Below, one piece after another: positions 3,891-49,848 of a stretch of DNA of 64,000 nucleotides. This stretch comes from Euglena gracilis (taxonomy: Eukaryota), in NCBI GenBank assembly GCA_039621445.1, contig CP154954.1, forward strand, positions 18,586,642-18,650,641, given 5' to 3'. How positions within the stretch are numbered: position 1 is the first letter of the stretch; each line of letters opens with the position of its first letter. A program made the translations under genes and the position numbers. Below the pieces are notes generated by a model that was not told where the DNA came from, did not search any database, and saw only the letters and a list, made by a program, of their open reading frames with translations.

Positions 3891-4305
3891 CAGGCTTTTG
3901 CTTAAGGACCTGGGGGGGGGTGGGTACTGTCTTCCCAATCGGTTAGACACTGGAAAAAGTGGACTAGCTAGACCCCCCCTCCCCCCAAGGGGGGGGGGGG
4001 GGTCTGGGGGTCCCCCAGACTGGAAGAAAATTTTTCCTCCGGCGCTGCGCGCCAGAGGAAAAATGAGGTTTTTAACAGGTTTTTGGCTGATTTTGTTCCA
4101 AAAATTCCCAAAAATGTCCAAAAACGGGCATTTTTGGCCATTTTTGGGGGTCCCAAAAAAATTTTGGGCGCTTCGCGCCGGTCACTGGGAAAAAAATTTC
4201 CACTAGCTAGCCCTGCTAGAAAACCCACTAGCCAAATTTGGACTAGCTGCAGTCCAGCCCTGCACCCGGGGGGGGGGGTACTGCAATCCCTTAAGCAAAA
4301 GCCTG
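3891..4305. mobile_element. MITE with CAGGC..GCCTG termini and 8-bp TSD (hAT-like)
   Basis: TIR CAGGCTTTTGCTTAAGG / CCTTAAGCAAAAGCCTG; flanks ctcccaac / ctccgaac (7/8). Confidence 0.8.
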
Positions 4306-6142: not shown

Positions 6143-7419
6143 CTGCCGGGGGAAAGAAAGGCCTAGCCAGGCCGGAAACGCTGCAGGGGAGGGCCAGCAC
6201 GAAGCGGGGACATCCCCAAGTGGCAGACAGGACTGTCTGACTTGAGGCTAACCCAGGGCTGTCCGGGAGGGCCCGGTGGGGGGGGGGGTCCAACCCCCAC
6301 CTGGGAGCCCAATATGGTTTTGGAAACAGAACAGTACAGCTAGAACAGCCGTCCCCGCTTTTCTGAAAGGCGTGGTGGCAGGGTTTGCCAGAGGCGGCCG
6401 CCAATAATGGAAACAAATCAATATACACATTGCACATTACACAAAATACAATTTTTACACATTGTGGCCATTAATTACTTCTCAACCACTCACTCCGAAT
6501 TCTTAATCCCCCGCCAACTTACTGTGCAGGCCCTGTTGGCCCCAACGGGCCGGGGGACCAACAAGCTGCAAAGCCAAATGCCTTGAAAGGGGATAATTTT
6601 GGGAGGGTTAAAGGCCGAACCCTGTCTTTACTCCAGGCTCGCGAAAAAAAATTAACAATTCGCCAAGAGCCAGCACCAAAGACACGATGCTAAACTATTT
6701 TTTTTGCAGACCCTCAGCCAGTGACGTCAAACAACAAACCTTCCGATCTCTCTCATCACACCCTCCCTGACGACTCACTTTCCCAGAAACAGCTTACTGA
6801 TTTTGCTGTGTGCACTACAAAAATTTTATGGTACCAAAGTGATACCGCCATATGGAACATGTCGCAATTATGGCAGTTGTGGAGCAAACGAAGCATCATA
6901 ACCCCCCCCAATTGAAGCAGGGGGTGCGCTTTTTTGGACCCTGCGCTTCTAACAGCATGCTTTTATTAGGGGGCGCAGGTTTCGACTGTCTCTGGAGTTA
7001 GAGGCAGGCAAACTCAACGCATTCAGACATGACCAGGGGTTTCTTTAAGACCGGGGGTCTCCCCCCACCCACCCACCCACCCCCCCCCCCCCCCCCGGGG
7101 TGTCCCGGGGGACCCACCCACGTTTCCCCGAAAATGACCAAAAAAGCGAAGAATGCTAAAAATGGCGTATTTTCAAAAAGGATATCCCACCCCCCCTGGG
7201 GGGCCCCCGGGGGGGGGGGGGGGGGTCGGCCACTCACCACAGAGCAAGCTGGGCCAGAAGCGAAGTTAGCGCCGGCCATAAACAGACAAGAAGCCTTAGT
7301 GCAACTAAGGGGGGGCCTCGGCCGGACCCACCCACCCTACCCCCCCCCCGGGGTCCAAAACTAAAATAAAAAAAAACCTGGACATGACAAACATTCAATT
7401 GCACAAATTCAAAACACAC

Positions 7420-7938: not shown

Positions 7939-7944
7939 GTGAGT

Positions 7945-7980
7945 GTGTGTATGTGTGTGTGTTGTGCGCGAGTGTGTGTG

Positions 7981-8012
<32 letters not shown>

Positions 8013-8043
8013 TGCATGCGTGCGTGTGTGCGTGCGTGCGTTG

Positions 8044-8080
<37 letters not shown>

Positions 8081-8096
8081 GTGCGTGCGTGCGTGC

Positions 8097-8127
<31 letters not shown>
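7945..8127. repeat. (GT)n/(GCGT)n compound microsatellite
   Basis: Read directly; copy at about 43955-44150. Confidence 0.95.
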
Positions 8128-8300
8128 AACGCGTGTTATGTGTATGTATGAAGGTGGGTGTGGCTGTGGGTGTGGGTGAACTTTCGTGTCTGTGCACGTG
8201 GATTGCATTCCTGATTATGGAGAATGAGATGCGAAAATGAAGTTTGAGGCAAGAGACCGGTTGTTCCTGGGGCTGGGATTCCAGCACAGGGAAGGGGCAC

Positions 8301-8435
8301 CTCTACGAGGGCAAAGGACAACGTCGGCTTCCAGTGGGGGACCCAGACGTCTGGCACCACGTCCTCCACGGCAGGCACGTCCTCAGCGGCAGTATCCCCA
8401 AACAGGTGCCGGGTTGCAGCAGCCGCCTGTGCAAC
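8301..8435 (-). CDS. CLPTM1: CLPTM1-family exon VAQAAAATRHLFGD...HWKPTLSFALVE
   Basis: HWxPxL...V motif and GT donor at 8300. The 5' boundary is inferred from the nonconventional acceptor CTGTTTAC|G. Confidence 0.85.
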
Positions 8436-10426
8436 GTAAACAGCAACAAAAATAAAACTCCATTTGACACGGGGTTCGCGCTGCACACTTTGAAACACAC
8501 ATTAAATTACTTTTGGGGGTTGGTGATGGATTATGAGGCTACGAACACCAGAAACTGGCGAGCAAACCTACAACCGAGAGGGTAAAGAAGGTGGGTCGAA
8601 ACCTCAACATCGGCCTCAGAGCCCGCATTCTCTGAAAAGGGTACTCTCAGGCAGTCTCCTTCGCACTTCACGCGTAAAAGTGGACCTTGTGTATGCAATT
8701 GTGCAACTAACAGGAAGAAAAAGCGGTTTTAGGGGTCGCTTTCAGGGGTTTTTGAACCTAAGTTAGTCCAAAAACATCGAGTTTGTTGTGGTGGATGACT
8801 CCCAATGCGTCAACAAAAGAAGGCTGTGAGAAACAGGGGTAGGTCTGGAAGTACAAAAAAAAATGTTTTGTGGTGGTTGGTTTGAATGCTGACCTTCAAA
8901 TTTGTGATCACTGCTGGCACGACGCGCCTTCTGTTGCCGAAGATGTGGACCGGTTTTTTCTGCCCCCTTTTCCAGAATGGGTTTTATGTGTCCAAGACAG
9001 CCTTCAATAAGCATGTTTCATGTTTTGGTACGGCCTACGCCCCCATACAGCATTTGAACAACAATTAGATTGTTCCAGCAGGTGATGGAAGGACGTCAGA
9101 ATTACCAGGGGTTTTTTGCACAAAAAGGTGTATTGGTTCACCAAAATATGTGGTCGCTTTCTGTTGTTGGTCAGACATGTAAATGAGATGTTTGACGAAG
9201 TGGGTGCAACAACCCTTCTTTGTCAGGCTGCGAGACAGCGGTACTCTTTTCATCTTTGACGGACGGATGGACAATGTGTAAGATGGTATAAAATGCCTGT
9301 GATGGGAACGTCAGAACGTAGCAGTTGGTTTAATTGTGCCTGTATTTCTTTGAAGGGAAACAACTCAGAAAATGGTTCCCGATGTGGAATGCGGGAATGG
9401 GGATGCGGGGATTTCAAGCACTTGCCCTTTGCCAGACACATCGCCATTGAAAAACAGAAGCACTTCGGGAAATTGTCAAAGAGAGTGGCATGGCTGACAT
9501 TCTCAACAGTTCAGCAGCATATTTCAAATTTCAGGCATCTCACTTTTTATTTACCGGCACCGCACCCCTCACTGGCCCTGCAATATAACCCCTGATTTTT
9601 GCGGACATGACGCTGCGCGCAAATTCTGCGTGCCGGCAGGACCTGTCTTGAGGCACCACAGTGAGGACAAAAAAGTTCAAAACAAAGCACGCAGCACGTG
9701 GGCAACAATGAAAAAAAAGAAAACAAAAAGCAGGTGTCCTTGTTTTGACTGAGGTGTGAGTACATGACACAAAGACCTTTTTTTTTCCACCATGTAAGGG
9801 AACATGGAAAATAGACCTGGAACTCACTTGAGTGCTTTGCGAGTGACGAAGCCGAGTCATCCAACGCTCAGTCACTCTGTCACTCTGCAAACACCTCTGT
9901 CCTCTGCCCTTCTTTCACGCCTCTCAACCCCATGGATTATCTTCCCTGATCCCTGTCTTGTGGTCCAGATGCCCATGCAGGAAAACACAACAAAAAATGG
10001 GGGTCCAGATTTCCACAAAGGGGGTGCTTCAAAAAGGGGCGTGCTTCGAGGGTGCCGGTGTCTTTTAGGGGGTGTTGCATGTGTTTGAAACTCATGCTCG
10101 GGCCGCGAAACATCGTCAAAAACGAGCCACCAGGGTGAAAACCCCAAAAAGTCATCTGCCAAAGGGGCATCTATCTACCAGGAATTAAAAAAACACAAAA
10201 CAGGAAATGTCACTTCTTTCAACAAGGATTGGAGTGCAAACAAAAAGTCATTTGCAAAAGAATTGCTAAAAAGTGCGAAGTAGGACACCAGAAAAATTCC
10301 AACCCAACCACCAGGTGGCAAAGCCAGTGGCCCAGACTGGGGAGAACCAGTGCTTATGGTGATTGGGTGTGGGAGATGGAGGGCTGGTGGCAAGCGGAAG
10401 CAAAGGGTTCGGGCACACTCCTGTTT

Positions 10427-10458
10427 GGGCAAAAACTTCACCAACGGGTGCACAGCGT
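10427..10458 (-). CDS. CLPTM1: CLPTM1-family micro-exon (H)AVHPLVKFLP
   Basis: 32 nt, restores the frame between neighbouring exons, with nonconventional intron ends on both sides. The duplicate has a synonymous TTT/TTC difference. Confidence 0.75.
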
Positions 10459-11839
10459 GTAGACAGGCTATCTTTCCTGATGGGGAGAACCCCTTTTTGA
10501 CAGAAGTGGTTCTCAAAAAGAATTGCATTCACAAAACAGAAGAAGCTATTTTGAGGAACCACACAAATCTCTGGCTAATTTCTGGCAAATGGTGTATTTT
10601 GCAAGAGGAGAAAATGTGGCTCCCCCCCTTATTGTTTTCCCTGACGATTGGGGGGTGGGTGCTAAATTCCCAATGAAACCAAATGCGCGCGGAAGATTCT
10701 TTCCTAGCGCGATTCTTTCCTAGCGCGCTGAAGGCGCCAGGAAAAAAGAGGCCGTTTGGGGGTGGGTTACTGACAACCCACCTTGTCACCAAGGAGGTCT
10801 GCGGAGCCCAAAGGGGTGACAAATAAGGATCACATTGCCGTTATTTTGATGGTTCTCATAAATGCACAATTTTTCCGTATTGACCATTTTCAATGGAAAC
10901 CGCACAATTTATTCTTGGGGGTTAAATGAAACAAAACCTGAGAGAGTTTTTTGTGTGTTAGACACACATATCACAGAGGGACATGTTAAAGTGGGTTCAA
11001 CAAGTTGGTGTCCACATCTAAAATTTCATTGACAAATCACATCTTCTTTAATTCAGAACAGGTCAAAATGAAATTTTCGAGGGTTTTACAGAATTAATGG
11101 AAAGTTCTGCAGAATGGTTGAGGTGTTGCAAAAAAATTGGCGCCTCCGCTAGCAAATTCCCCCCCACACACATGGGGTGCTTCCAAGGGAGATGGCAAAG
11201 TGGATGAGTTTTTGGATGTGCCTGGAGAGAGGGGAGGGGGCTGCGCCCCCCCCCCCCGGAGACCCCCCACCTCCCCCTCCCTCCAAATAAAAGTCAACAA
11301 GCATCTTTCAGACGTATTTTTGTGCCCATTACAGACACAACATTTCACAGCGATTCCGAACATGCAAAAAAGGAACAAGAAAAATTTGTTCAGGTTTACC
11401 CCCCCCACAAAGGCAAGAAAACGGGGGCAATTTTTGCAATATATGGGTTTTTCGTCTGTTCTTAGCAGATTCTTTATTCGTTCCATTCCGGGAAGAAATG
11501 TGATCAATTTTGAGTCATCATTGTGGTCCAATTCAAAAGTTCGCTTTTGAAAATTATGTGGAGCCAAGAAGGATCTGTGAGAAAATAATTTTGTTCGCAT
11601 ACGATTCCAGGGCCAATAGGAAAAATTTGGGACGCATGATTTTGTTGTAAAGCTAACTTGCATCACTTGTGTGAAAACAATTTTTCGAGGGGCAATAAAA
11701 CAAAGCAAATTTCCTATGTGAAATGGCAGAATTTTTCATTTTCTCTCAAGCAAAGCCAAGCCGACATACCTCCATCAGAAGCTAGAATGGGAAAAATGAA
11801 TTGAAAGAAATACACTTGGTACCCGAGAAATGCCTGGAT

Positions 11840-11915
11840 GGATGATCCTCTTCTCATCCGCGGCGGCCAACTCCGTCCCCTGCTGCGCAACGAAGATGTG
11901 CATCCAGAGTGACCC
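11840..11915 (-). CDS. CLPTM1: CLPTM1-family exon GSLWMHIFVAQQGTELAAADEKRII
   Basis: Completes the family motif NGSL..H.F with the upstream exon; 76 nt, phase consistent. Confidence 0.87.
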
Positions 11916-12214
11916 GTTTGCCAGGGCTGCACAGGAGGGCCAGCTGGGGTTCCCCCCCCCCTATCTCTGGAAAAAAATCAGTTTGCAAACTGCCCCCCCC
12001 CCCAACGCCCGAAAAAAACAAGTGGTCCTGCGAACCTCACAAAAGCAAAATTGCGCACTCAGAATGGCATCACCATTTGCAATTATGTGCTTTCGCCGTT
12101 CACAACAGCACAACCTAATGTTTTGTGTGCATTTGTCACCAGGGAGGTGGGGGTCGGATCCCCCCTTCCTAGGGTCCCCACCACCACCACAAGAAATCCC
12201 ATTCAGCCCTGCCC
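11916..12214 (-). other. Nonconventional intron retaining element TIRs (CAGGGCTG/CAGCCCTG) and an 8-bp TSD relic
   Basis: Minus strand reads AAC|GGG CAGGGCTG...CAGCCCTG GCA(A)AC|GGG; no GT-AG solution found. Confidence 0.85.
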
Positions 12215-12383
12215 GTTACCCGCCAAGTACTCATCCACAGGGACCTCCAGCTGGTAGGTGTGCTGCGCCTGGTCCTGTGCGGAGTCGAAGACGACCACAT
12301 CACGCCAGACGTGCAGGCTTGGGTCACCGAAGTCGACGGCCGTCCAGTTCGGGTCTCGTTTTAAGAAGAGCTGGACGTCCAAT
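12215..12383 (-). CDS. CLPTM1: CLPTM1-family exon LDVQLFLKRD...VPVDEYLAGN
   Basis: 169 nt open frame, phase consistent with both neighbours, conserved at 48242-48410. Confidence 0.83.
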
Positions 12384-13768
12384 GACGGCAGAGCGGTGCG
12401 GCAAGAGTTACCCCCCAAACAGGAGCGTGCAGGGAAAAAACCCGGGGAGTCCAGCCAGCCGGCTGGGAAAAGGTGCTGCCTGGAAGGGGAAAAAGTGAAA
12501 GCTAGCTGGACCTCTCCCCCAGGGGTCGGCTCCCCTCTGGCTTAAGAAACCCCCTGCCCCCAAAACCCAAGACTTTTGACAGGCGAGGTGGGACGTTCGC
12601 AACACGACCTCGCATCACAAGGTCCTTGTGTTTGCAAAAGTCATGCAAAAGTCGTGCAAAAGTATTTGCAAATTTTTTTTCTGCACGCTAGTTATGCAAA
12701 GTTGAACGTCCCCATTTTTGCGTTTCTTTGGAAGTCATTTCCGCTGGAAGACGTAGAAGACGCAAACAGAGATGCCTGCAGCTTGGGGCTTTGGTGTAAT
12801 TTCCTTCCGAAAACAAGGAAGCAAGGCCCAGGAGGAGGAGGAAACATTTTGCCAAATCATTTCCAACAGAAAATTAGAATATCCAGAATGAATTTCCAAT
12901 TATCAAGAATAAACCTGAAAAAAAAAATTGCAGCCTGCCCCCCCCCACCGACCCCACAACCTCTGACCGGGGGGGGGGGGTGTTCACGCACCCCCTGACC
13001 TGCAACCCCCGACCAGGGGCTGGTTGTACGACCAGGTGCCAAAAACCCCTATTTTTGCTACGTCAGCTACAATCCCCCAACCACGGGGGTGGGGGGGGGG
13101 GGGGCGTACGGACCCCCATGGGCAAGGGTAGGGGGTTGCAACAGTGTTCAAAAGATCCATTCCTTTCCATGGTTCTCCCAGGCTGCATGCCACAAAATGC
13201 TTTGTTAAAAAAAAAGTTGTGACCCTAAATTTTCATCAAATCAAAGGCCAAATTTTTTGAGAGGTTAGACGGTCCATTCCTCTGCAACAAACCAATCCAG
13301 TGTTCCAAGCAAAGAAACCATTTGAGCAGGGGGGAATGTGTCAGCCTGGCCTTGCGAAAAAATGCACAAAAATGTGCAAATATGCCAAAAAAATAAGCCA
13401 AATGTACAAAGTCTGGGAGAAAGTGCAGATTCAAAAAAATGCAAAAATTACCCAAAACACACGCAAAAAATGGCAGCAAATGTATAACAATCATATGGAA
13501 TTCTGATGAAAGTTTCAGTTTTCGAAAAAAAAGCAAAAAATTGTGCAAACCCGAAAATGCGCCAATGGAAGCGCCAGCAGGAATGAGCTACAATGATGGG
13601 GCTGAAACAAAACCACCGAAAAAAATGCGCCAGGAGCAAGAAAATGAGCTGAAACAAAAAAACTACAAAAATGCGCGAAAAAATGCGAATAAAAAATGCA
13701 ATGAGAAAAAAAATGCGAAACAACTTCCCTCCCCTTTATTGAGCTGAAATGTGAACACCAGCCTGACT

Positions 13769-13879
13769 GAGGCACCCTTCGCAAATAATGGTTCATACTC
13801 TCGTTGAACCGGTGATGGCTGGTGATTTGGGTTGTAGCGGCGTTCTCCAGCAGGTTCCTTTCTTGGCCAACAGGGGTTG
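13769..13879 (-). CDS. CLPTM1: Probable CLPTM1-family exon ...QREYEPLFAKGA(S)
   Basis: Ends at the nonconventional donor TC|AGTCAGG and gives PLFAKGASLDVQLFL, resembling the family's LFxKGxxLD segment. The 5' boundary (TTTCAG acceptor) is less certain. Confidence 0.6.
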
Positions 13880-15681
13880 CTGAAAGCAAGAAAACAACTT
13901 TACACATTTTCACTTCCGACGCTGTGCACAAGAGATGGCAAAAAAAAATTTTCTCTGTAAATTTGGGGATGGTAATTCCTAATTTGGTGTCAAATTCCTA
14001 ATTTTAGGTGTGGGGATTCCTAGTTTTTTTGATTTTTCCCCAAAAATTCGTGCTCGGTGATTCCTAATTGGCCGCCTAAAATGTGGTGTTCCCCCCGTGA
14101 CCCCCCCGTGACCCCCCCCCCCCCGGTGACCCGAACCACCCCCAGAGGCATCATGGATAATGGGTATACATTTTCTAAATTATATATTTTTTTGGTTCCC
14201 AATGATACCAGCCTTGTATCTGAATGTGTGTGAATTAAAAGGACAAGAGGAAAATCAGTTCTTTTCACAATTTGAAATTTAAGGTTCAATTATTTCATTG
14301 AATATTTTCATTTTGAATTTAAAATTTCTAAATTCAAATGACATGGAATGCAAAAAAATCTTGCATTTTTCATTTCTCAAAAATTTGATATTGCAAATTA
14401 ATCATGTCACGTGTGCCTGAAAAGGGACCTGCCTTCTGATCTCACGATCCGCAACACATTGCACCACAAACAAGAGAGTCAGAAGTTGACAGATACATCC
14501 ATTAATTACTGTCATCAACTGCAAGTAAAAAAGATTGTTGCCCGTTGGCTGAGTTTGGTCGTCAAAAATTCAAAAATGGGTTGGGTTATGGTGAATGATG
14601 AAAGCAAAAATTTGCAAATAGTGAGTGCCCAATTGTTTGTACCATCGATATTCACAGGAGTCTATTGTTTTCTTGGGGGAGGCAAAAATATCATTTCCAA
14701 AAGAAAACCATTCCAACATCCGAACAGCCCCTGCCAATCGGCCATTTATCCTTTTTTGAAGACGAGGGATGGGGATGTCCACCAGAAATGTTGACAAAAA
14801 AAACTCACTCTTTTTTAAGGATAGGCATTCTTCGGTGGATAGAGTTGGCATTTTTTCCCCGTCATTGAAGCCTGGAACTTAGAGTTGAACAATTTGTGCA
14901 GTTTGCACAGAGTCTGCACAGAAAAGCCTGGGGTCTTTTTGTGATTTTCTTTGATTTCCCATCATTTCGAGAAATAATAATAAAATACTTTTGAAAAAAA
15001 ATTGACCCTGAAATGACCGAAAAGCGGCAAAGCAAAAGAGGTGTGTTGGGACAGTATGAATTTGACTATGGCCATAAAATGGCCACAGTAGCCACGAACG
15101 ATGGGCGACCGCGGTGCCGTGGTCGTCCAGGACCCCCGAAAACCTTGGCCCAAAACACTGTTCTTGATCTGAAACCAAGGAATTTCCTAAGCCGGACCCC
15201 CCCCCCTGGGGGTCCAGCCAGAAAGCCCCTTTTTTTCCCACAGCCCCGCCCAGCGCGGCCTAAACCCCCCCCCCCCCGGTAATAAAGTTTTTGCAGCCCG
15301 GCAAAGCCAGGCTGGAACAAAAAAATCGGTGAAATTTTTGAAAAAGGGGGTCAAAAATGGCCAAGAATCCCTGTTCTTTTTATTTGGGGGGGGTTCACCT
15401 CAAAAAATTTAAATAAAAATAAAATAAAAATGCATCCCAGATTTGGGCCTGTTTCGGGTCAAAAAAAGGTGTTGGCTGGACCCTCCTCCAGGTCCAGGGA
15501 GGTCGTTCGAACCTGGCTGCTGGGCTGGACCTGGCTTTTTCCAGCCAGCCGGCCGGGAGAGTGGCGATGTGCTCTTTCTTTGGCTGGGGGAGCCTTGGAG
15601 ATATTCGTCCCATAGGGCTGCAAGGTCACCTAAAACCCCCCCCAAAAATAAACCCCCCCAAATACAACCCCCCCCCGATTG

Positions 15682-16786
15682 TGGAATCGTGTATGGAGGC
15701 TCTGGGTTCACATCCGAACCGGTGTCTTGGACACCGGTTCGGGCGGGAAACCGGTGACTTGGACTGAAGAAACAGGACAGAAATGCAAAAGGCCATCATT
15801 TGGAATTCGGTGCAAAGAGGTGCGAAACGACCAATAAGGCAAACCGGACAGTACCACAGCCGCAGCGCTAAAACGAAGGCAACTGTTTTGCCTGAGGGAT
15901 CAGACACGGCTAGTTATTTACCATCAGGGCACAGCCAGGACCCGTAACGGGGGGGATGACCAACCCTGCACAGGCGCAATGCGACGGCAAGTGGCAGACA
16001 TCGCAAACGACTTTACGCTTGCCGCCACAGAGGCCCATGGCACCCCCACAGTTTGGACAGTGGTCCGCATCCCCCAACTCCATCTTCGCTTTCATCTCCT
16101 TCGGAAGAGAAGCAGCATTGAAAAAAACACAAAGTTGTGGATAATGTGACTGCACCGAAGGCACAAACGAGCCAACATGGGAGGGCGCTTCCCTGTACAA
16201 CGCAGCCAAAGTGTTGACCATCGTGGTCAGCGTGGAAGGGAACCAGGACTGATCCTGCACCTTGGCATTAAAATAAACTTCTTCGCGTTGGGCGGTGGCT
16301 GCCTGTTGCTTCTCGTAACCGTGATCAAAGGACACGTGACATTTACCGTCCAAAGAGCAAATGCCAAGAGCCAATCGTCAAATGTTGCCCCACGCAGCTC
16401 GCAAACCTTTTGGAAATGCCGGGCAGCTGCCAGCACCACCATTTTGCCTTTCGCAAGACCACCATGGGGGCAACTGTTGTCAAATGTTTCCCCAAACAAA
16501 AGTGAGTGGGCTGCTAGAGGTGCGGCGGCGGCCTCAAGACTAGCCAAAGATTCTGCTGGGGTGGGGGGCAGCGCACTGGTGCACACGGTAGTAACCTGGC
16601 CGGTGTCATTAAGAAAAAACCTGCCAAGGAAGCAATACGTGACCGTGCGTCCCTAGACACCGGTTCGGAAGCCTCCGATACACGGTTTCAAGAACTGTGT
16701 CCAAGACACCAGTTCGGGCGTGAAATCAGTGACTAGGACACCGGGTTCACGCCCGACTGGTGTCCTTGGACACAGTTCTCGATATA
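15682..16786. mobile_element. TIR plus terminal-hairpin element carrying a PHD-like gene
   Basis: Degenerate TIRs (ggaatcgtgtatggaggc / gcctccgatacacggtttcaa), then a hairpin at about 16692-16778 and a CTCGATATA end. Same end structure as 29449-30403 and 32274-33225. Copy at about 51655-52757. Confidence 0.65.
15910..16586 (-). pseudogene. Frameshifted gene with a C-terminal PHD-like zinc finger
   Basis: CPNC..CDVC..HCAC in ORF 15910-16374; a shifted frame supplies WLCPD. An upstream part lies in overlapping ORF 16227-16586. Confidence 0.55.
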
Positions 16787-18154: not shown

Positions 18155-19581
18155 CAGGGCTGGATACAGGTAGAGGTACAGGTTGCCAACACAAAAAACA
18201 TACCCCCCCTGACAGCACAAAAAAACATACCCCCCCCCCTTTTTTTTCAGTTTTTGTGGCAGCCATAACTTCGGCTGTGCACCATGTTGAGGTCTCGGAC
18301 ATACTCCATATTGTTGCCTGTGAAATACCCATCCAAAAATGTCTCTGTGCATTTTCCTCGATTCCCCCTCCACCCCGAGTTATGGGCCCCTCAAAAGTGC
18401 TCCGCACACGACAAGCGAAAATTTTTGAAAAACATGGATTTTGGGCCGGGTTGGAATAATAAACAGCTCACCACTCGGGAACCCTAAGGAGTTGGGCTCT
18501 GGAACTTGGTGGGTCGGATTGGCCATGAAATAGGCTTCAAAAAATATCTACATCAAAATTTGCCATCTCGACACCCAGAAAAAGTTATTTTATGGTTTTT
18601 AGGCCAGCTCAAAAAAAATTTAGCCCTTTTTGTGTGGGAAAACCTAAAAAATGTGTGTTTTTTTTTCCCACACAAAAAGGGCTAAATTTTTTGGAGCTGG
18701 CCAAAAAATAAAAAACTTTTCTGGGTGTCATATGGCAAATGATGATTTTTTGCCTTTTTCCTAAATCCGCCATTTTTTTTTTCAGCGTTCTGAGCACTGT
18801 TTATTTCCAAACCCGGCCAATCATCCAATCGAATTTTTTTCCGTTGTTGAGACCCATAAATGGGTGAAATCAGAAAAAAACATGAAAAAACAAAAAAGAG
18901 GGGATCAGGGAAAGGGCTGTGAAATGTTTTTTGTGTCAGAGGTATGTTTTTTTGTTTGGCAACCTATAGGAGTCCGACCACCATGACCCAACTCTTACCC
19001 ATATGTTTATACCAAGGCCCAAAATCCATGTCAAATTTTGCTTGTCTTTACACTTTTAGGGGCCCAAAAGGAATGAGAAAATGCACAGAGACATGGTGGT
19101 TTCAATTGCCAAGAGTATGTCACAAAATGGTCATGATTTTCCAAAAATGAAAAAAAATATTTTTGTGCTTTCATATGTTTTTTTGTGTGGCAGTAGAGGT
19201 CAAAGTCCTCTACCTCTATCTGACCCACTCTACCTCTTCTACCTCTACCATAAAATGTTATAACTGGCCCATAAGGGCCACAAAAGGCTCCATATGCCTA
19301 AAATTTGTCTAATTAGCATCTCAACACATTTTATTTAGATTAGGAATGAGAAAAAAAATCAGGATGGGTTTTTCAAATTGCCATAAGAGTTTGTCACAAG
19401 AATGGTCAATTTCTGATTTTTCCATAAAATTGCCTTCGTTCGACATATATTTCTTTGATAAGCCACTTTCCTTAAGGTTTGACATTGAGGTGACATAGAG
19501 GGATAGCAGAGGTAGAGGTGACCTCAACCTCTACCTCTACCTCTACCTCTACCTATATCCCTCTCCCTCTATCCAGCCCTG
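18155..19581. mobile_element. Element with CAGGGCTGGATA TIRs and a 7-bp flanking duplication; contains a fold-back region
   Basis: CAGGGCTGGATA / TATCCAGCCCTG; flanks atacagc / atacaga; (CTACCT)n near the ends. Confidence 0.75.
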
Positions 19582-22500
19582 ATACAGAATATCAATTAAA
19601 ACCTATTTCCTGGGCCCGACACCTGTCTTGAATTTCTACAGACACTAACGGATTTCAGGCGGAATCCGTTAGCGTAAAACAATTTCCAAGACAGGCGATC
19701 GTTAGTGTAAAACGATTTCCAACACAGGGATCCGTTGGTGTAAAATGATTTCCAAGACAGGCGATCGCTTTCATAAACAAAAAGGTCCTAAAAAGGCAAG
19801 ATGTGAGGAGCAAACAAAACACAGCTGAGGCAGCGGTGCTGTTGATCACGGTGGACGACGAAACGAAAGGGGGGACCCCGCATCGGTGCATATTTTTCAT
19901 AGAGCTCACGACAAACGACAGATTTTTTTTGCCCATCAACTTGGCTCAACAACAGGGATTTTTGTGGTCCTCCTCTGTTCCTCCTCTGTCAAAATCCCAG
20001 GTGCTATTTGTTGAGCAGTTTCCATGGCACGCACCCCTCTTTCACGTTTGAGCACTGCAGCAAATTCATTCAGCAACGGAAACGGTTCGCCCGCTTAGCC
20101 ATTAAGAACAAAAACTGAGGACAAGAAGAACATGTCACCATCGTCAAAGAGCAAACGATTTCCAAGACAGGGATTCGTTAGAAAACGGCCAAAACTCAAG
20201 CCAGGTGCATCGGTCGAATGAATTTTCAAGACAGGCGTGCGGGCCCAGACGAAAAATAGGTTTTAGTAAATCAACAGACACTACCCATTTCAGCAGGTGC
20301 GCCGAGACGCTCGCATCGCTCGCACGGCCCCGCGCCCCAGAAAAAATTTTTAGCGTCTGTTGATTTACATAGAAAGCTCTTTCCAAGACCTTTCAAATGA
20401 TGCCCACAGAGCTCAACCACACTTCGCAGGGCTCTGAAAATCGCCAATCGCATGTTCCGCCCTTTTTTTACAAATTCCAAATTCCACTGTTCCCCTGCAA
20501 TGTTACCCATGGATTGAAAGCTCTTCTCAAGGGCAACCGGAAGATGGCCTCGGGTTTCAGCCACACTGTATGGTGTTCTTATTTTCTAAATTCCCCCAAA
20601 ATCGCCAAAAGGATTTATTGCACAAAAATACTCCAAATACAGGTCAATACCCCCCCAAAAAACTACTCAGATAAGGTTGCCACATCTCAGCAAACCATTT
20701 GGACACTTTTTGGCACTTTTCATTTTGGCCGACTAAGTTCATTACGGTGCACCAGGGCTGGAGGTACAGGTTTGGAAAAACACCCATACGTATAAGTCCA
20801 CCACGTATACCTATACCTAACCTCCATTATTTTCCCTCAAAACCCTTTCATTACCAAACATATAAGAGATATAGGAGACATAGCTGGCATGTCCTCCTGG
20901 CAGCGGTGATGACCCCCAAGTCCCCAGAGTCATCGCATGATGGATGGTCAAACCTCAGAGAAGTCTGAGCTGCCCCCCGGAGGATTGTTCCCGGTTGGGT
21001 GGGGTGTGGGCTGGGCCGGGGTCGGCATTGGTTTCGCTTTTAGCGTACACGAAATCGCACAGCACAACAGGTGCGCACTGGTCGGCCACTCTGGAATCCA
21101 AAAGAATTTGACCCAAAACCGTGAAAAAAAGGCCAAAAAATTTTCCGGTGCCTTTGGCGCCGGGTCACTTTTGTGGTTTTTGGCCGACCCTCCCCGGGGG
21201 GGGGAGGGGTCCGGGCCAAAAACCCGTCCGTCACTCTGAAAATACCCTCCCCCCCGGGGGGGGCAGTGACTAAGTGATTATGTGTTCCGGACCCCCCCCC
21301 TCCAGCTTGCAGGGAGGGACCCCCTCCCACCTGAACAATGGCGCGGTCCTGGTGACTGGTTTTCAGGCCGCACAAAGATTCAGGCCGAAAAATTTTGACC
21401 CCAAAATGACCAAAAGCGCCATTTTGGGCACATTTTGGGCAAAAAAATGCCAAAATGAGACTTTTATAAATTTGACTTTGGACACCCCCCCACCCACTTC
21501 ATTGCTTTGCCCATATGAACCCTTCTAAAAACTTCAAGCTGGCTGTTTCACCTGTTCTTAGGTGTTGTTCGTGATAAAAAAATGCAATCCTGGAGTTCAT
21601 TGCGGAGAATGACTGCAATGGAAATAAAGACTTGGATGGCAAAGTCAGGACTAGACTTTGTTCACTACCAGTGATTTTCAACTTACGAGTAGGGGCAGGA
21701 AAAATTGAAGTAGTGGGGATGTGGTTTTTACCCTGAAGTGTGGATAGGACATATGCTTAATTATGGAGTGGAAGCCGCTATCTGGCGTCACTTTTTTGGA
21801 AAAAAAGTCATTTTTCAAAAAAGCCATTGGAGGGGGTGAGGGCAAAAATTGCTTGCCCCTCGCAGCCATTGTTTTTGAGCCACACCCTGCTTGGAGAAAT
21901 GAACCAAAATGGAAAAATGGCGGTTTCCTCATCGGTCGGGGGGGGGGGGCTCCTGGAAGCGTGCGTCCCGGGGGGGAGAAGGGTTTTTGCCCACAAACAT
22001 CGTCCGCCCCCCCTTGATGTTTAAGCGGCGTTATAGAGACCCCCAGGACCGGCGTCCCACCCGTTGGTGAAAGGCCCCTCCCAGACCAAGCTCCATGATC
22101 TGCAATTGCGTTTGGGTCACATGGGTTCATTTCCCGTTTGGGGGGGGGATTGGGGGTGTTGTGTGGGGGGGGGAAACCTCTGGCGGGCTCATGAAAAATG
22201 GTGAGTAAAAAAAAAAAAAAAAAAAAAACAACTCAATCTTTCATGCCGTAGAAAACTGGTAGATCAAAAAAAAAATCATGAGTGTAAAAAAAAAAAATGT
22301 TCCAAAGACGCAGTTGGATGGTAGAATATGCAAAAATGCAAAAAAAACTCTGTCAAAGCGTCGAAGGGAAATTTTACTTTGAGGGGGGGGGACACCCCCC
22401 CCCACACCCCCGTATGCCCTCCTTATATCGAACCCTGACGACCCCCCCCCTTGGCACCTCATTCAAAATCGGCTGATTTTCTGGCCCGGACTTCGGCCAG

Positions 22501-22871
22501 ACCGGAATGACGCGTGCCCCCCCCCCGGGAAAAAATGCAGGGATGGGTGAGATGGTCCGCCCAGTTGGCGGGCCAGCCTGCGGCCGGCGGGCCCGGCCTC
22601 TGGCCGGGCTGGACCCAATTTTATTTTACTCGACCCCCAGGGGGGGGGGGTTGTCCCACCCACAGGTTCATTTAACACTTGTGTGGTGGATTGGTTTTTT
22701 TTTATGGGTGGGTGGGTTAGGACCGCTGGCGTCTTTTTTAAAAAATTTTTTTCAAAAAAGCCATTGAGGGGTATGGGCAAAAAAAATTGCTTCCATTCGC
22801 AGCATTTTTTTGAGCCCCCCCCCCCCTGCTTGGTCAAAAATGGAACCAAAATGGAATGGTTTCTAATAAAA

Positions 22872-24028
22872 AAGGGGGGGGGCGGACGGCGGTTCCGTCC
22901 TTCGGACGGAACCGGCGTCCGGAACACCTGTTTTTGGACAGAACCGGCGTCCGCCCCCCCTTGTTTAAAGCGGCGTTTTAGAGACGCCGGGCTCAGGACC
23001 GAACCGGCGTCCCACCCTTCGGCCAAAGGACACTCCCAGGACCAATCTCCGACCACTGATCTGCAATGTCACACCACTTTGCACTTCACCAAATTCCGGC
23101 GATCGCGAGGGTATTTCTGGCTGTGTCAATCGTCCAGGTACAAAGTCACCCCTCAATCGAAAGATCTTTTCATCAGACAACTGGCGATCACCACCAAATT
23201 CAGCCACGTCGCCTGGAGCTCTTATTTTCTGTCACTGGGAAATCCTAATTTCACAACTCTGGTGCCCCCCAGGACCCCTCAGGTGGTCGATTCGAGGAGA
23301 AAAAACGTTTCTGTAGGGTTTATTCAGCATCTTCAACCAAAAGTCACTGAAGATTGCTACAAGTGTCGACTCAGATTCTGGCCGATCCGACGATCGCGAG
23401 CGTATCTCGGGCTGCGTGCAACGTTAGGGTACCAAGTTACCCCTCGGTCGAAAGTTCTTTTCAACAGACGACCAGCGGTGCTCATCAGATCTTTCCACGC
23501 CGCATGGTAACCCCCCCCCCTCACTTATAACCCGGGGGTTATAGGATCCTGTTTAGTGGTTGGCCCCGAGGGGGGGTTATAAGCGGGGGGGGGTTACAGC
23601 CTTGGCGGTTCTCTTTGCCTTCTCATGGCTTCCGGGGGGGGGGGGGGATACATCCGGGTTTAGTGCTTGGGCCCGGGGGGGGGGGTTATAAGTAGGGGGG
23701 GGGGATAGGGTGGGGGGGGTATAAGTGGGGGGTCGGGTTTGCTCTATTTCCAAATCTGGGCCAATTTTCACCAAATTTGGGCATCCACTCCACTGGTCCC
23801 CAAATGACAAAATTCATTGTCCTAGATGGTTGAAACAATATATCAGGACCTTAGGGCCACTTTTGGGCACTTTTGGTGACATTTTTAGGAATGAAAACCG
23901 GACGCCGGGTTTCGGACAAAACCGGCGTTCCTAACACCGGATTTTAGGACAGAACCAGCGTCCGGAAAACCCGTGGGGGGGGGGACACCAGTTCTGTCCT
24001 GAACCCGGCGTCTCAAACGCCGGTTTAA
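22872..24028. mobile_element. Non-coding element with TTAA-ended TIRs (22965-24028) and an external hairpin (about 22872-22962)
   Basis: TTAAAGCGGCGTTTTAGAGACGCCGGGCTCAGGAC vs GTCCTGAACCCGGCGTCTCAAACGCCGGTTTAA; GACGCCGG subterminal repeats. Related pieces at about 28365-28507 and 35250-35665. Confidence 0.7.
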
Positions 24029-24299
24029 GCAAGAAATTGTGAAAATGGAAAAAATGCCCAATTTTGGCCGTTTTTGTGGAAAGGGACCAAAACTCTTTGG
24101 TTTTTGAGTCATTTCAGTTCATTTCAGGTTCAACCTTGCGATCAAAAGGAAAGTTCGGACCATCGTTTTTTCCTTAGTTATTTGAAATTAATTACATAAC
24201 CTGAATTAACTTACACCAACCTTTATTAAAAGTTTTTTTTACCCGTTATTTTTAATCAAAAAACAAAAAAAAACAAATAAAAATGTTTTTTTTTATAGG

Positions 24300-24396
24300 A
24301 AAAGCGGGGTCCGATCACGATTCCCGGTGGAGAAACGGGGGGCGCCTACGGCGCCCCCCGTTTCTCCACCGGGAATCGTGATCGGACCCCGCTTTT
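24300..24396. repeat. Perfect hairpin, 47-bp arms with 3-nt loop (TAC)
   Basis: 24300-24346 is the exact reverse complement of 24350-24396; identical at 59277-59373. Confidence 0.97.
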
Positions 24397-24510
24397 TTCT
24401 TAAAACCGTTAACCAAGTTCACGGGCTTCCTCGCAGTAGGCAAGCGCTTCCTTACGAGATGCCTAGGGGGTCAAAAATCGCGTTTTTGGCGTTCACGGGT
24501 GAACTTTGGC

Positions 24511-24544
24511 CGTTCACGGGTGCCGTAGTGCGCACCCGTGAACG
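24511..24544 (+). other. Candidate recombination site, 13-8-13 (CGTTCACGGGTGC cgtagtgc GCACCCGTGAACG)
   Basis: Perfect 13-bp inverted arms around an asymmetric 8-bp spacer. Function is inferred. Confidence 0.7.
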
Positions 24545-24684
24545 AAATTTCCGTCCACAGCTGCCGTGCGTGCACCCGTGAACCGACCACGGTTGCGCAA
24601 GGTGTTACCCGTGATCGGAATTTGAATTTTTTGGGTTCTTTACATTTATGTTTCTGTCTGTCCTCTGCTTTTCCCCACAGTCCG

Positions 24685-26498
24685 ATGAAGCGTTTTGCCA
24701 ACATGATGGAAGCACAGATGCCCCGCCCCCCCAACGTAGATGAGTTTTTGGCTGTTTTACGTGGTGCCGGCTCCCTAGGAGCTGCTGCAGTGGTCAAAAT
24801 TGTGACCTGGGCCCCAAGAACCATGCCGCAGTAAAGTGTTTTTTGGAGTATATAGATGTTTGCAACCGGCATGGCGTTGTTTTTGGCTCTTTGGACGAAG
24901 TTTTGGTGGGATGGGCCAGATGGTGTGTTGATGCTCGTGAACTTTTCAAGACGCAGCAGGAAGCCGATGCCTGGGTCCAGACAAGGCAGGAGAAGGTAGG
25001 AAAAGATGGGCGCCTTCGCTCCATGCCAGTGTCCAGCTTTCGGACCTATGGAGGCCAGGCGCGCCGCTCGGGGGGGTCTCCCCCCCCCTGCGCGGCCCTT
25101 GCGCGGCCGCTCGCCCCCCCTGGACCCCCCCCTCCCCCCACTGTGCCTAGCATAGCCAAGAAAAAAAAATTTGTGAAAAAATCGCGACTTTTTTGAGGCC
25201 CAAAAATGACCAAAAATGACCATTTTCGGACATAAAATGCGGCCGGCCGCAGCCCAACCAAAAAAAATTTTGGTTGGGCCGCGGCCGCCGCGGCCCAACC
25301 AATTTAACATTTTGAAAGCCAAAATTCGCCATGGTTGGGCCGCGGCATTCCGCGGCCCAACTAAAACTCTGTTTTGGTTGGGCGACGGCCGGCCGCGGCA
25401 AATTTGGGGGCCGCACGCTCTGCGTGCGGCCAAAAAAGCACTTTCTTGGTCGAAAATGCCAAAAAATGGCAAAAAAAATGACCACTTTTTGGACCCGAAA
25501 ATCATCGATTTTAGGATGTGCGCCGCCCGCGCAAAAGCCGTCGGAACCCCCCCACCCCGCGCGGCCGCCCGCGCGGCCGCCTGCCCCCCCGCCCCCCCCC
25601 CCCTGCTGTGCCTAGCCTCCTATGGAAATGCTATAAGCAACATTTACAAGGCATTGGCTCCCGTTTATGCCATCATTGTACCATCGTCTGTGTCCCAGTT
25701 CCCGCAGTTCAATGCGTTGATGAAGCCACTCGTCACGCACGAAAGGGCCAAAAAAGCAATGGAGGCCAAGGGTGGGTTGACAAACACAGTTTTGCAGGCG
25801 GACGAGTTGCTCACAGTTTTGAAGGCTGCCGAAGGTTACACACCATTTTTGGTCCAAAGGAGGAATGTCCTTTTATTGGGGTACACCACCGGATACCGAG
25901 GGGAGGTTCTTCGTCGGTTGGTGGTCGAAAGTTTCAAGCCGCAAATTATGGACGGGCGAAAATTGTACAACATCGTCGTGGGCACAATGAAAAACTTGCC
26001 CGGAGACCTCAATCACGTCGATCACCAACTTTTCTCTTTGCTGATCACGTCTGGCGATGACCCGCGTACGTGCCCCGTTCAGGCAATCGACAGACAGGTG
26101 GCCATGTTGGAAGCGCACGGTGCTCCTCTGCCAGAAGGTGCACCAAATTTTTTGTTCTGTTCCGTGCGCAGTCTGAACGCCTGGACCCTGCCGCCAACCC
26201 CAATTTCGGGTGAATATTCTTGCGGCATCGGAAAGTGGGTGTCCAGGGTTTTGGCCAGACCGGTGTCCTTCAAGGACTTGTCCCGAAGAAGTGCCATGTC
26301 ACGGCTGGTAAACAGTGGGGACTCTCAATTTCTGAGTGCGCCAAAAATTTCCATGTTACCCCGGCCACAATTTCTGTCTACCACCGCTCAAGACTGGCTG
26401 CGCCCATGAAGGTCGCAAAGGTGCTCAGTGGGGTGAAGTCGGAGGGCTCTGTGCGACCAAATTGTTGGCAGCACGGACTCTGTCACCCGGGACAATGA
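24685..26498 (+). pseudogene. Tyrosine recombinase, disrupted
   Basis: Motifs LLLGYTTGYRGE (Arg), TMKN (Lys), CPVQAI, FLF, DLSRRSAMS and FHVTPATISVY (His, with Tyr 9 residues later). ATG 24685 follows a pyrimidine tract and AG. Stop/frameshift near 24833, MITE at 25050-25620, frameshift near 26320. Confidence 0.85.
25050..25620. mobile_element. MITE inserted in the recombinase gene, 3-bp TSD TAT
   Basis: TIR GGAGGCCAGGCGC / GTGCCTAGCCTCC. Removing it with one TAT restores SFRTYGNAISNIYK. Related copy at about 28517-28962. Confidence 0.9.
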
Positions 26499-26730
26499 TG
26501 TTGTTTCTATTCCACCGCATCTGGCGGTGGGCAGCCGGCGTACGGCCAAGGGCAAGGAGCGCGTGAAGCGTCCAGGGCTGACGTTTTTTTGGTTTTAAAA
26601 CAAAGCAAAAAAACTTTATGAATAAAAAACGGTTTAAAAACGGTTTTTTGTTCCAAAAAAGAGTGTTTTTATTTAAATAAAACATTGCAAATAGGAAAAA
26701 AACTTGTTTAAAAACACTTGTTTTAAAACA

Positions 26731-27388
26731 ATGCCTCAGCCCTGGAAGCGTCCTCGGACCCCGACGCCGCCGCCGTCCCCAAGCTTGCTGGAATCTCCTG
26801 ATTGGTACACCGGTTTCCCTCGAAAAGTTAATTTTCTGTTCTTTTTCTCAGTCTGCGTCCGGCACCACTGCCGATTGACGTGGATTCCGAGGAAGAGGAT
26901 CTCGACTTGTCCGAGGTGCTCACCCAACCGTCCGAAAAGGAGTGGCTCACGCCGGAGCAGCGCCGCGCTGCCGAGGCACAGGTTACAGAAATGCTTAAAA
27001 TTTTGTGTTGGTTCTTACATTTCTCCAGATCGTTAATCCGCCTCTAAAGCGGAAGCTGAAGTTGGAGGACATGGGTGCGGCCGACGACTGCACCAGCTCC
27101 TGCAGGAATGCGGCGAGGTGGTCGGCGTACCTGAACTGGCACGCAGACCCGGCGCCGGAAGGCGCCACCGTTATCCAAATTCTGTCTGCTGTCCCTTCCG
27201 TGTTCCCACCCGCACCCCCATCTTCTATTCCTTTGTGTCGGCTGTTTGGTGTGCGTGCTTTTAGTGACACGGATGTGGCTGCAGCCAAAAGTGTTCGTTG
27301 TTCCGTTTGTGGCGAGACGTATCATTTTGTGTGTGCTGAGTTGCGTCGCGCGCCGAAAAAAGCGTGGATTTGTCAGGGTTGTCGTTGA
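26731..27388 (+). CDS. 187-aa protein with C-terminal PHD finger (exons 26731-26804, 26852-26981, 27029-27388)
   Basis: Two 47-nt GT-AG introns give one continuous frame. CxxC..CSVC..HFVC..WICQGC; the first Cys pair is intact (CPRC) in copy 2 and mutated (CRLF) here. Confidence 0.85.
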
Positions 27389-27633
27389 GTTATCCGTCCT
27401 GTTGTTCCTCTGACCATGCCGAAAGGCATCGCGAGCATGTGCCTCGCACCGAAATTTAGTTTGCCGCGTGTCAATTCCCTATGCCACCTCTTGCATTCCT
27501 GCCCTTTCCTGCCCATTCACATCCTCTTCCCTACTGCGTAAATGTTTTTCCTTTTTTATGTAAAACTCCGTCCACGGCTGCCGTCTGTGCACCCGTGAAC
27601 CGACCACGGGTGCGCATATGTGAAAACGGGGTC

Positions 27634-27667
27634 CGTTCACGGGTGTCGTAGTGCGCACCCGTGAACG
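27634..27667 (+). other. Second candidate 13-8-13 recombination site, direct repeat of 24511-24544
   Basis: CGTTCACGGGTGT cgtagtgc GCACCCGTGAACG; 33/34 identical, same spacer orientation. Confidence 0.7.
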
Positions 27668-27768
27668 CACCCCGTTTCCTCACGTGGGGAAGCCCGTGAA
27701 CGGTTAACGGTTTTAAAAAAAACAAAAAAAACACCAGCTATGGTAGGAGGTGAGAAAGCCTATACCTA

Positions 27769-27987
27769 CCACCCCCCCCCATAATTGACACCCCCCCATA
27801 ATTGACACCCCCCCCCCGACCGAAAATTTTTTCAGCCGCTCGCGTCCACGGACCAAGGGGTTTGTCAGGAGTCCCTTGTATTTTGCCTTGTCCGTTCGGA
27901 CCCCCCCCCATAATTGACACCCCCCCATAATTGACACTACCTGGGGGGTTTGGAGGGTGTCGGGGGTGTCAATTATGGGGGGGGGGG
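27769..27987. mobile_element. TA-flanked MITE (Tc1/mariner-like)
   Basis: CCCCCCCCCATAATTGACACCCCC / GGGGGTGTCAATTATGGGGGGGGG with TA on both sides. Confidence 0.7.
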
Positions 27988-28066
27988 TATACCTATACCT
28001 ATACCTATACCTATACCTATACCTATACCTATACCTGTACCTGTACCTGTACCTGTACCTATACCT
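27988..28066. repeat. (TATACC/TGTACC)n hexamer microsatellite
   Basis: Read directly. Confidence 0.95.
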
Positions 28067-29448
28067 TCCAATATCCCTATATCCCTATATCCAGCCCTGG
28101 GTGCGCATTTTGGGCTCACACGGGATTTTGTGATTTTGGGTGTTTGGGCCATCCTTGCCTTGCACACAACGTTATTTTGGCCGGGGTCCGGGGGGTGTTG
28201 GGTGGTCGGCCCCCCCAATCGACTTGCGCCCATACCTTGAGATGAGCCGACACAGCTAGAGGTAAGCTCGTGATCGTCGGAATTTGGCAAAATGCAAATC
28301 AGCGAGACATTCAGATTAGTGGTGGGAGATTGGTCCTGGGAGTGTCCTTTGACTGAAGGTTGGGGACGCCGGTTTTGTTGTGAACCTGGCGTCCCAAAAA
28401 CGCCGCTTTAAGACAGGGGTGGTGGACGCCGGTTCTGTCGTGAACCCGGCGTCCAGGGACGCCGGGTTTACGACAAAACCGGCGTCCACCACCCCTTTTC
28501 TGATATAGTGTGCTCCGGAGGCTAGGCGCGCCGCTCGGGGGGTCCGGGACGCCCCCCCCCCCCCCCGCGCGGCCCCTGCGCGGCCGCCCGCGGCCGCTCG
28601 CCGCTCCCCCCCCCCCTGGACCCCCCCTCCCCCCACTGTGCCTAGCATAGTCAAGGGAAAAAATTTTGGTGAAAAATCGCGATTTTTTGAGGCCCAAAAA
28701 TGACCAAAAATGACCAGTTTCGGACACAAAATGGCAAATTTGGGGGCCGCGCGCTCTGCGCGCGGCCAAAAAAGCACTTTTTTGGTCAAAAATGGCAAAA
28801 AAAAAAAAAAAAATGACCACTTTTTGGACCCGAAAATCACCGATTTTAGGATGTGTTCCGCCCGCGCGGCCGCCCTCGGACCCCCTCCCCCCCCCCCCCC
28901 CCCCGCGCGGCCGCCCACGGCCGCTCGCTTCCCCCCTCGCCCCCCCCTTGTGCCTAGACTCCTTCTCCCTCTCGAGAGGACCACAATGTAATTTGTTGAA
29001 TTTTTTTGCAGTGCCTCCCATGAGAGCTCCGAGCAGAGATGTTGCTATTTTTGCGGACGAAATTTTGCATGCTCGCAACACGTCATTCACTTACATGCCG
29101 ACAAGCAACAACAGAGCAGGGTGAGCATCGCATGCCATTGTGGAAACTGCTGAAGTACTGAAGTAAGTAAGTAACGTGCACGACCTGGGGAGGTCCTCAA
29201 TGTGTTTATTCCACGCTTTTGCAGAGTCAAACGGTCGTCATCGGGGTGGTGACAAGGCACTCCAAAAGCCTTCAACCCCAACTAGGCAATGAAGGCTGTC
29301 ACAAGAATTTGATGCCGGGAGTATCTGGCAGTGTTCCAAGTGGTGGAATGGGGGGGGGCAGAAAAAAATGGAAGTTTGTTGTTGAAGTTGCGCTGCCTCC
29401 GGCGTTTTTCACCCAGCCATTTAGGGTACGGCAGGGCGCTCCGGGTGG

Positions 29449-40744: not shown

Positions 40745-49848
<9,104 letters not shown>

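Follow-up and report, generated by a model that had tools for sequence, protein, structure and literature searches.

Nonconventional introns are reported to make up 71.8% of all introns in Euglena agilis, and the locus described here bears on where such introns come from in euglenids and how they are removed. They are marked by borders other than GT-AG, by a consensus in which positions +4 to +6 pair with positions −8 to −6 (Milanowski et al. 2014/2016), by a purine at the start of the next exon and by direct repeats that make the junction slidable. An origin from transposable elements of the miniature inverted-repeat type (MITEs) was put forward by Milanowski et al. 2014 (PMC3935182), at a time when it was stated in print that none had been identified in euglenid genomes, whatever the kind of transposable element. 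We describe one such intron, in a CLPTM1-family gene on contig CP154954.1 of Euglena gracilis (GenBank assembly GCA_039621445.1); the window analysed is the stretch of 64,000 nt from position 18,586,642 to 18,650,641 of the forward strand, and it contains the intron twice, as copies 1 and 2. A first-pass annotation of this window had proposed that the intron is still recognisable as an element that ends in terminal inverted repeats (TIRs), and that its splicing geometry is the footprint of a hAT-type target site duplication (TSD), an interpretation that overall is partly supported. The background that it gave, the pairing of +4 to +6 with −8 to −6 and the proposed MITE origin, is indeed published.

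More recent work adds to this picture. A 2024 review (PMC11282704) refers to TIRs at +4 to +6 and −8 to −6 and to 'TSD-like' repeats, and Nomura et al. 2025 (PMC12501133) report that 84.4% of introns are 'slidable' through flanking direct repeats and suggest a MITE. The latter study established, by knock-in mutagenesis, the splicing code 5'-N3CDG-/-CH'GN5-6|R, in which the 5' spacer has to measure 3 nt exactly and the 3' spacer 5 nt, one extra being tolerated; the spacer bases are reported to be free in sequence as far as splicing is concerned, and CAG/CTG and their pairing to be required. Intron 4 of gapC in E. agilis ACOI 323 (PMC4770533), a recent gain, is likewise nonconventional and has an eight-nucleotide direct repeat at its junctions; it is absent from other strains and was read as a product of double-strand-break repair, whereas at the present locus elements with matching inverted ends lie nearby. 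The introners of Micromonas and Aureococcus, like other spliceosomal introns derived from transposons (PMC11282704), are also TIR DNA transposons in exons, and the mRNA is restored when splicing takes out the element along with one copy of the duplication. They differ in having GT/GC-AG borders that the spliceosome handles, one of the two sites having been recruited from the duplication, whereas here the borders are noncanonical and set by distance from paired ends. Earlier publications thus already cover the MITE origin, the TSD-like repeats and a young intron that has an 8-nt repeat. Against this background the intron belongs to a known kind, of which it is a well-preserved example, and it supports the published transposon-origin hypothesis; matching elements that have 8-bp duplications are here viewed locally for the first time.

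We infer that the intron probably arose from a small non-autonomous TIR DNA transposon that inserted into a conserved coding exon with an 8-bp TSD. Its removal was seen directly in RNA. The stretch 8200-18100 of the window was searched for joints in two raw RNA-seq runs (X21 and X24), in the contigs of X15, which probably come from RNA, and in a set of DNA contigs (X13). A joint 11912->12212, which omits 299 nt and slides by 6 nt with a fit on either side, is supported in X21 by 18 reads with 14 start points between them, in X24 by 3 reads and in X15 by one 1592-nt contig; it is present in all three RNA sets and in no contig of the single DNA set. The junction expected by the first-pass annotation is thereby confirmed.

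The product of this joint is exact. Only one close protein was found in a large database, P0001 (EG_transcript_7062, 579 aa). When the six joined exons are translated, 188 of 189 residues agree with this protein, including ...EYLAGNGSLWMHIF... over the junction; the joint thus has independent confirmation from a transcriptome, and the match also points to E. gracilis as the source of the DNA. In an alignment of 37 of the 120 listed CLPTM1 homologues (P0001-P0030 and seven chosen for spread), 35 cover the region around the junction, no sequence is gapped there, and the Euglena GNGSLW falls within a conserved N-G-S/T-L-aromatic motif. Because no homologue shows a gap at this point, the mRNA holds exactly one copy of the repeated 8-mer, with no scar. 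Excision of the core together with 8 nt (9 nt in copy 1) therefore restores the conserved coding sequence, as had been claimed for GNGSLW.

Placed within the slide of the RNA joint, the intron of copy 2 is GGG-CAG...CTG-GCAAC|G and that of copy 1 ends ...CTG-GCAAAC|G, and every element of the published code is present. The next exon begins with a purine (G) in both copies, and the extra base of copy 1 lies within the published 5-6-nt tolerance of the 3' spacer. GT-AG borders are found at no placement within the 6-nt slide. The ends can form 8 perfect pairs, with energies of −7.4/−8.6 kcal/mol in a test of 10+10 nt; terminal helices of the gene's introns span −3.4 to −9.2 kcal/mol in the same test, and a range of −10 to −2 kcal/mol is given for the nonconventional introns of E. 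gracilis (PMC11170887). An unconstrained fold of the intron and its flanks (−121.6 kcal/mol, z −0.08) has a minimum free energy structure without the end helix, a result that is uninformative for a sequence so rich in G/C runs. No back-joint of the kind expected from circular RNA was found at the intron among the joints listed from the RNA sets. Three of the other four introns of the gene (589, 1385 and 1381 nt) also fit the code, each with a purine following and each likewise beginning CAGG; the fourth, of 1994 nt, does not follow it. In its working the intron shows no difference from other euglenid nonconventional introns, and what is unusual is how much of the presumed scar has been kept, with 8 perfect inverted bases and flanks that agree at 7/8.

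The removal of the intron, its exact product and its fit to the code are shown by these results, and its ends and flanks are as the first-pass annotation had described them. On the + strand of copy 1 a perfect CAGGGCTG at 11922-11929 is answered by CAGCCCTG at 12204-12211, and the same pair stands at 47949 and 48231 in copy 2, where the core spans 47949-48238; the core is 290 bp long in both copies. The inverted repeat is perfect at 8/8 and fades beyond, to 9/12 of the outermost bases. In copy 2 the core is preceded by CCCGTTGC and followed by CCCGTTAC, an identity of 7/8, and in copy 1 the left flank, CCCGTTTGC, has one extra T beside the same right flank, CCCGTTAC. This T, at 11917, is missing from the DNA run X13 at a depth of 41/41, and therefore either belongs to copy 1 alone or stems from an assembly error. 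Random pairs of 8-mers from the window agree on average at 2.0 positions, reaching at least 5/8 at a frequency of 0.034 and at least 7/8 at 0.00105, the last a somewhat flattering figure for a reason given below. Since the spacers are reported as sequence-free for splicing, splicing does not account for the match of the spacer to exon bases. A TIR-bounded nonconventional intron with an 8-bp flank repeat is thus confirmed.

The two copies of the intron are both present as described, but they are not separate events. A segmental duplication of ~25 kb relates 3925-29049 to 39338-64000, in direct orientation, at 97-98.7% identity and with ~10 kb between the units, and through it the window has two copies of the CLPTM1-family gene and of each CAG-ended element described below. 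Both intron copies lie inside this one duplication, so that one insertion is recorded and not two. Between the copies, the exons differ at 1 of 572 positions, the introns by 0.3-7% and the 299-nt intron by 3.7%; with so few exon differences, RNA cannot tell which copy is expressed.

A transposon origin would explain the geometry of splicing as follows. The pre-insertion site would have carried a single GTAACGGG-type 8-mer, and a CAG-ended non-autonomous element would have inserted between the N-G and S codons with duplication of these 8 bp. In the pre-mRNA its ends, CAGGGCUG and CAGCCCUG, could pair, and the nonconventional system would cut 3 nt upstream of CAG and, on the side of CUG, 5 nt downstream (in copy 1, 6 nt), removing the element and one duplication's worth of flank and leaving an mRNA as if the insertion had never occurred. 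Any split a+b that equals the duplication length would serve, the leftover bases rebuilding one intact target site. With a+b = 8, exact restoration would be had only for elements with 8-bp duplications, and elements with duplications of 5 or 11 bp would keep the frame. Because only 8-bp duplications would be restored exactly, the equality is unlikely to be coincidence if these introns do come from transposons.

We infer that the 3+5 geometry may equal the duplication length for this reason, and regard '3+5 = 8 = one duplication' as plausible. The arithmetic behind the proposed footprint is sound, in that one 8-bp duplication is removed; as a general rule it is testable in this gene on four introns only. 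Out of 8 flank positions, these four code-fitting introns agree at 7 (copy 2), 5, 3 and 2, where the mean expected by chance is 2.0, and the 5/8 of the second nonconventional intron has the chance frequency of 0.034 given above for at least 5/8. An equality between the 3+5 spacing and the duplication length is not stated in the main texts that were searched of papers on Euglena introns and genomes. It carries a quantitative prediction, that flank identity measured outwards from CAG and CTG peaks at exactly 8 nt, for which hundreds of thousands of annotated introns are available and to which the distribution of sliding distances in PMC12501133 could be directly relevant. Such a peak would explain both the odd 3/5 spacing of the code and the tolerance of insertions in conserved codons.

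A wider proposal is that the 3+5 geometry mirrors, in RNA, a staggered cut of 8 bp in the target, that most nonconventional introns are insertions of one class of CAG-ended transposons with 8-bp duplications and that their splicing machinery is a dedicated eraser, taking out every insertion along with a single duplication. We advance this tentatively, and at somewhat less than even chances. If true, it would explain how ~70% of Euglena introns accumulate in coding exons without harm, and the 5-6-nt tolerance would match duplications of 8-9 bp.

The case for a transposon is strengthened by the neighbourhood, where an RNA-verified nonconventional intron stands side by side with small elements that share its 8-bp terminus, and where clean 8-bp duplications are seen on two small elements, one of which (26573-26744) has the intron's terminus. 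The 8-mer CAGGGCTG has 20 matches on the two strands of the window against 2.63 expected (~8-fold), a number reached in none of 100 shuffles; counting the duplication once, there are 5 forward and 5 reverse sites. As the first-pass annotation had noted, it recurs at 18155/19581 and at 20753/28099, and further sites lie at 26573/26744, 6254 and 4262, all of them duplicated in the second copy. The terminus is therefore found on at least four sequence types besides the intron, and is shared with elements that are not intron-like.

Elements with such ends were sought in positions 1-39337 by a targeted scan for CAG...CTG pairs 50-3000 bp apart with inverted ends matching at 10/12 or better. This gave 44 pairs, and two of them (26573-26744 and 3891-4305) have flanks that agree at 7/8 or better, against 0/44 in each of three control registers. 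Five more rows, at 5-6/8, all trace back to a single 77-bp tandem array, so that they lack independence. In a generic scan for perfect 8-bp inverted pairs (22,015 unfiltered, 3,713 filtered) the distribution of flank identities was no different from that in the control register, and only the restriction to CAG...CTG with ends of 10/12 or better made such a scan informative. The array itself lies at 36500-38300; its units, with a period of ~77 bp, are 84-97% alike and each contains CAGGGCCCCA, and the array yields spurious CAG...CTG pairs.

The termini at 6254 and 4262 are orphans, for which no partner end with a fitting 8-mer was found. At 6254-6310 the first 28 nt are 82% like the left end of the intron (E 0.48) and the next 21-nt motif is 90% like intron positions 224-244 (E 0.037); both similarities are marginal, and the segment could be what is left of a related element.

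Several observations weigh against a transposon origin. The inverted repeat is perfect over 8 bases only, and as three of these and the pairing are needed for splicing, selection for splicing could maintain the ends. The chance rate of 0.00105 for the flanks flatters, because the intron was picked by a reader who had already viewed the window. The elements that the first-pass annotation cites as free, at 18155-19581 and 20753-28099, do not carry 8-bp TSDs: by hand count their flanks agree at 0/8 and 1/8 in the 8-nt register, and at 6/7 in a 7-nt register, so that either this family makes shorter duplications or each element has lost a base. Dispersed copies of the intron body were not found elsewhere in the window, where blastn with the 290-bp core returned only the duplicate copy and marginal short matches at 6254-6302. 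The word depth of the DNA run X13 over the core (~41) is at the level of the single-copy flanks, a weak indication given that depth is not copy number, and no empty-site allele was seen in that run. Finally, a Pfam search of 28 of the 132 stop-to-stop frames of at least 100 aa in positions 1-39400 found no transposase of any kind, hAT included, and one PHD finger only.

Part of this evidence speaks for convergence through splicing, according to which the CAG...CTG ends and their 8-bp extension were shaped by the splicing machinery, other sequences share CAGGGCTG because they too are introns, present or former, or because the code has its optimum in this 8-mer, and the flank repeat arose by chance. 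The lack of a dispersed core copy in the window and of a transposase in the frames scanned would suit this explanation, as would the requirement for CAG/CTG and pairing (PMC12501133) and the CAGG that likewise opens the gene's three remaining nonconventional introns. It leaves unexplained the 7/8 match to exon bases in spacers that are reported to be sequence-free, and the ~8-fold over-representation of the full 8-mer. Nor does splicing need the 8/8 and 7/8 duplications of the 172-bp and 415-bp elements or the 17-bp perfect inverted end of the latter. We consider convergence improbable.

Double-strand-break repair, in which the intron would be filler DNA and the flank repeat microhomology or the fill-in of staggered ends, has a precedent in the explanation proposed for the 8-nt repeat at the young gapC intron (Milanowski et al. 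2016, PMC4770533), and two indels between the copies of the duplicated segment are indeed flanked by 8-12-nt repeats and have no CAG/CTG ends. It would leave unexplained why the inverted ends are perfect and the same as in other elements, and why a length of exactly 8 nt recurs at three units, and we regard it as very unlikely. The two indels were considered as empty and filled sites of an element and rejected as such, being without CAG/CTG ends. One is an 870-bp piece present only in copy 1 (21455-22325 vs 57342-57353), flanked by CCAAAATG/CAAAAATG, repeats of 8-9 nt; the other is a 286-bp piece present only in copy 2 (41701-41987 vs 6299), flanked by the 12-bp repeat GGTCCAACCCCC.

If the intron does derive from a transposon, its superfamily can be approached through the duplication length and the terminal bases. 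The hallmarks of hAT elements include an 8-bp duplication and the terminal motif YARNG (PMC3014272). Flank repeats of this length are seen at 7/8 for the intron (copy 2), 8/8 for 26573-26744 and 7/8 for 3891-4305, and CAGGG fits YARNG, while the CAGGC of the 415-bp element does not. Like hAT MITEs, the intron combines these two features with short inverted ends and no coding capacity; unlike them, it has no linked hAT transposase in the frames scanned and no multi-copy family in the window. The description of the TSD as 'hAT-type' thus has the two structural hallmarks, the 8 bp and YARNG, behind it and is unproven, with the elements at 18155 and 20753 showing 6/7-nt repeats instead. The element is hAT-like in two of three respects, and because no transposase was found in the frames scanned, 'hAT-type' may reasonably be used as a label of resemblance, not of membership. 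Earlier texts on these introns and genomes offer no such assignment: hAT is not named in PMC12501133, PMC11282704, PMC4770533, PMC3935182, PMC11170887, PMC12621601 or the preprint 10.1101/2025.04.23.650285. No literature combining Euglena, hAT, target site duplication and intron was found, and Euglena with hAT and transposase led only to a paper on Merlin elements.

That paper (PMC8101967) reports two Merlin families in E. gracilis, both with 8-bp TSDs, and so raises the alternative that the intron is transposon-derived but not hAT, belonging to another superfamily with 8-bp duplications such as Merlin or to an undescribed one. The absence of a hAT domain from the frames scanned is in keeping with this, and a 3' tolerance of 5-6 nt would suit duplications of 8-9 bp, the length made by Merlin. 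Merlin inverted repeats have a conserved terminal 5'-GG-3' (PMC8101967), whereas the ends described here start with CA; CAGGG fits the hAT motif and 8 bp is the duplication length of hAT (PMC3014272). A superfamily other than hAT is possible, if rather unlikely.

Other searches bear on the extent of the family. A metagenome scan with the 20-nt left end of the intron gave 2 matches, on contigs of 68% and 57% G+C and similar over 20-27 nt, which are taken as chance. The interior of the 7.3-kb end pair at 20753 and 28099 contains, between its CAGGGCTGGA ends, an open frame of 399 aa (25210-26409, + strand) with no Pfam match and no sequence match in the PDB, and downstream of it the frame with the PHD finger (26999-27388, + strand, E 2e-5); no DDE transposase was found there. 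The C-terminal 272 aa of the 399-aa frame (25591-26409) group with eukaryotic tyrosine-recombinase (Crypton-like) proteins in a language-model search (score 0.97), which can be taken as a lead only. In the family of 18155-19581 and 20753/28099, CAGGGCTGGA... is followed by GGTAGA/GGTACA-like repeats. The inverted arms of the 1427-bp element are ~570 bp long and ~94% identical (18177-18746 vs 55094-54523), making it a near-complete long hairpin.

Features of the locus discussed in the text, in window coordinates.
Feature	Position	Strand	Remarks
CLPTM1-family gene, 5' part	8300..14519	-	six exons and five introns seen; 5' end of transcript at 14519; gene extends below 8300
Nonconventional intron, copy 1, 299 nt	11916..12214	-	position set by the published code (GGG-CAG...CTG-GCAAAC, with G opening the exon); inside the RNA slide
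Intron in copy 2, 298 nt = 3 + 290 + 5	47944..48241	-	flanks 7/8
Upstream exon, CLPTM1-family gene (...EYLAGN...)	12215..12382	-	RNA joints, protein match
Downstream exon (G-SLWMHIF...)	11839..11915	-	RNA joints, protein match
Core, 290 bp	11922..12211		bounded by perfect 8-bp inverted repeat CAGGGCTG / CAGCCCTG
Left flank repeat	11913..11921		CCCGTTTGC, 9 nt in copy 1; CCCGTTGC, 8 nt in copy 2 and DNA run X13
Right flank repeat	12212..12219		CCCGTTAC
MITE-like element, 172 bp	26573..26744		CAGGGCTG ends; perfect 8-bp duplication GAAGCGTC (8/8)
MITE-like element, 415 bp	3891..4305		17-bp perfect inverted ends CAGGCTTTTGCTTAAGG, starting CAGGC; flanks CTCCCAAC/CTCCGAAC (7/8)
Element, 1427 bp	18155..19581		ends CAGGGCTGGATA, long inverted arms; flanks share ATACAG (ATACAGC/ATACAGA, 6/7)
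End pair of the 18155-19581 family, 7.3 kb apart	20753..28099		ends CAGGGCTGGA; flanks GGTGCAC/GGTGCGC (6/7); composite interior

The gene that carries the intron is assigned to its family through a frame farther downstream, which matches Pfam CLPTM1 (PF05602, E 6.8e-6); a Pfam search of the two exons adjoining the intron gave no match. The X15 contig that spans the intron contains four other joints, 8425->10420, 10457->11839, 12382->13768 and 13845->14435, and terminates at 14519 with a short loose tail that reads, on the minus strand, as a run of T ending in C. The Euglena spliced leader ends in this way, and the tail may be part of it.

At 8388 and 8393, which are G and T in both genomic copies, the RNA reads and X13 show A and C instead, which suggests a third allele or a strain difference; this variant agrees with the sole residue by which the translation differs from P0001. 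Three segments inside or beside the introns of the gene (16806-17467, 13827-14157 and 14820-15481) are very high-copy repeats, with summed word depths of 9,000-62,000 in X13 against ~30-45 for their neighbours. A GT/GC-rich microsatellite of ~190 bp occupies 7939-8127, presumably within an intron of the same gene, and intronic tandem repeats of this kind have been described in E. gracilis (PMC11170887).

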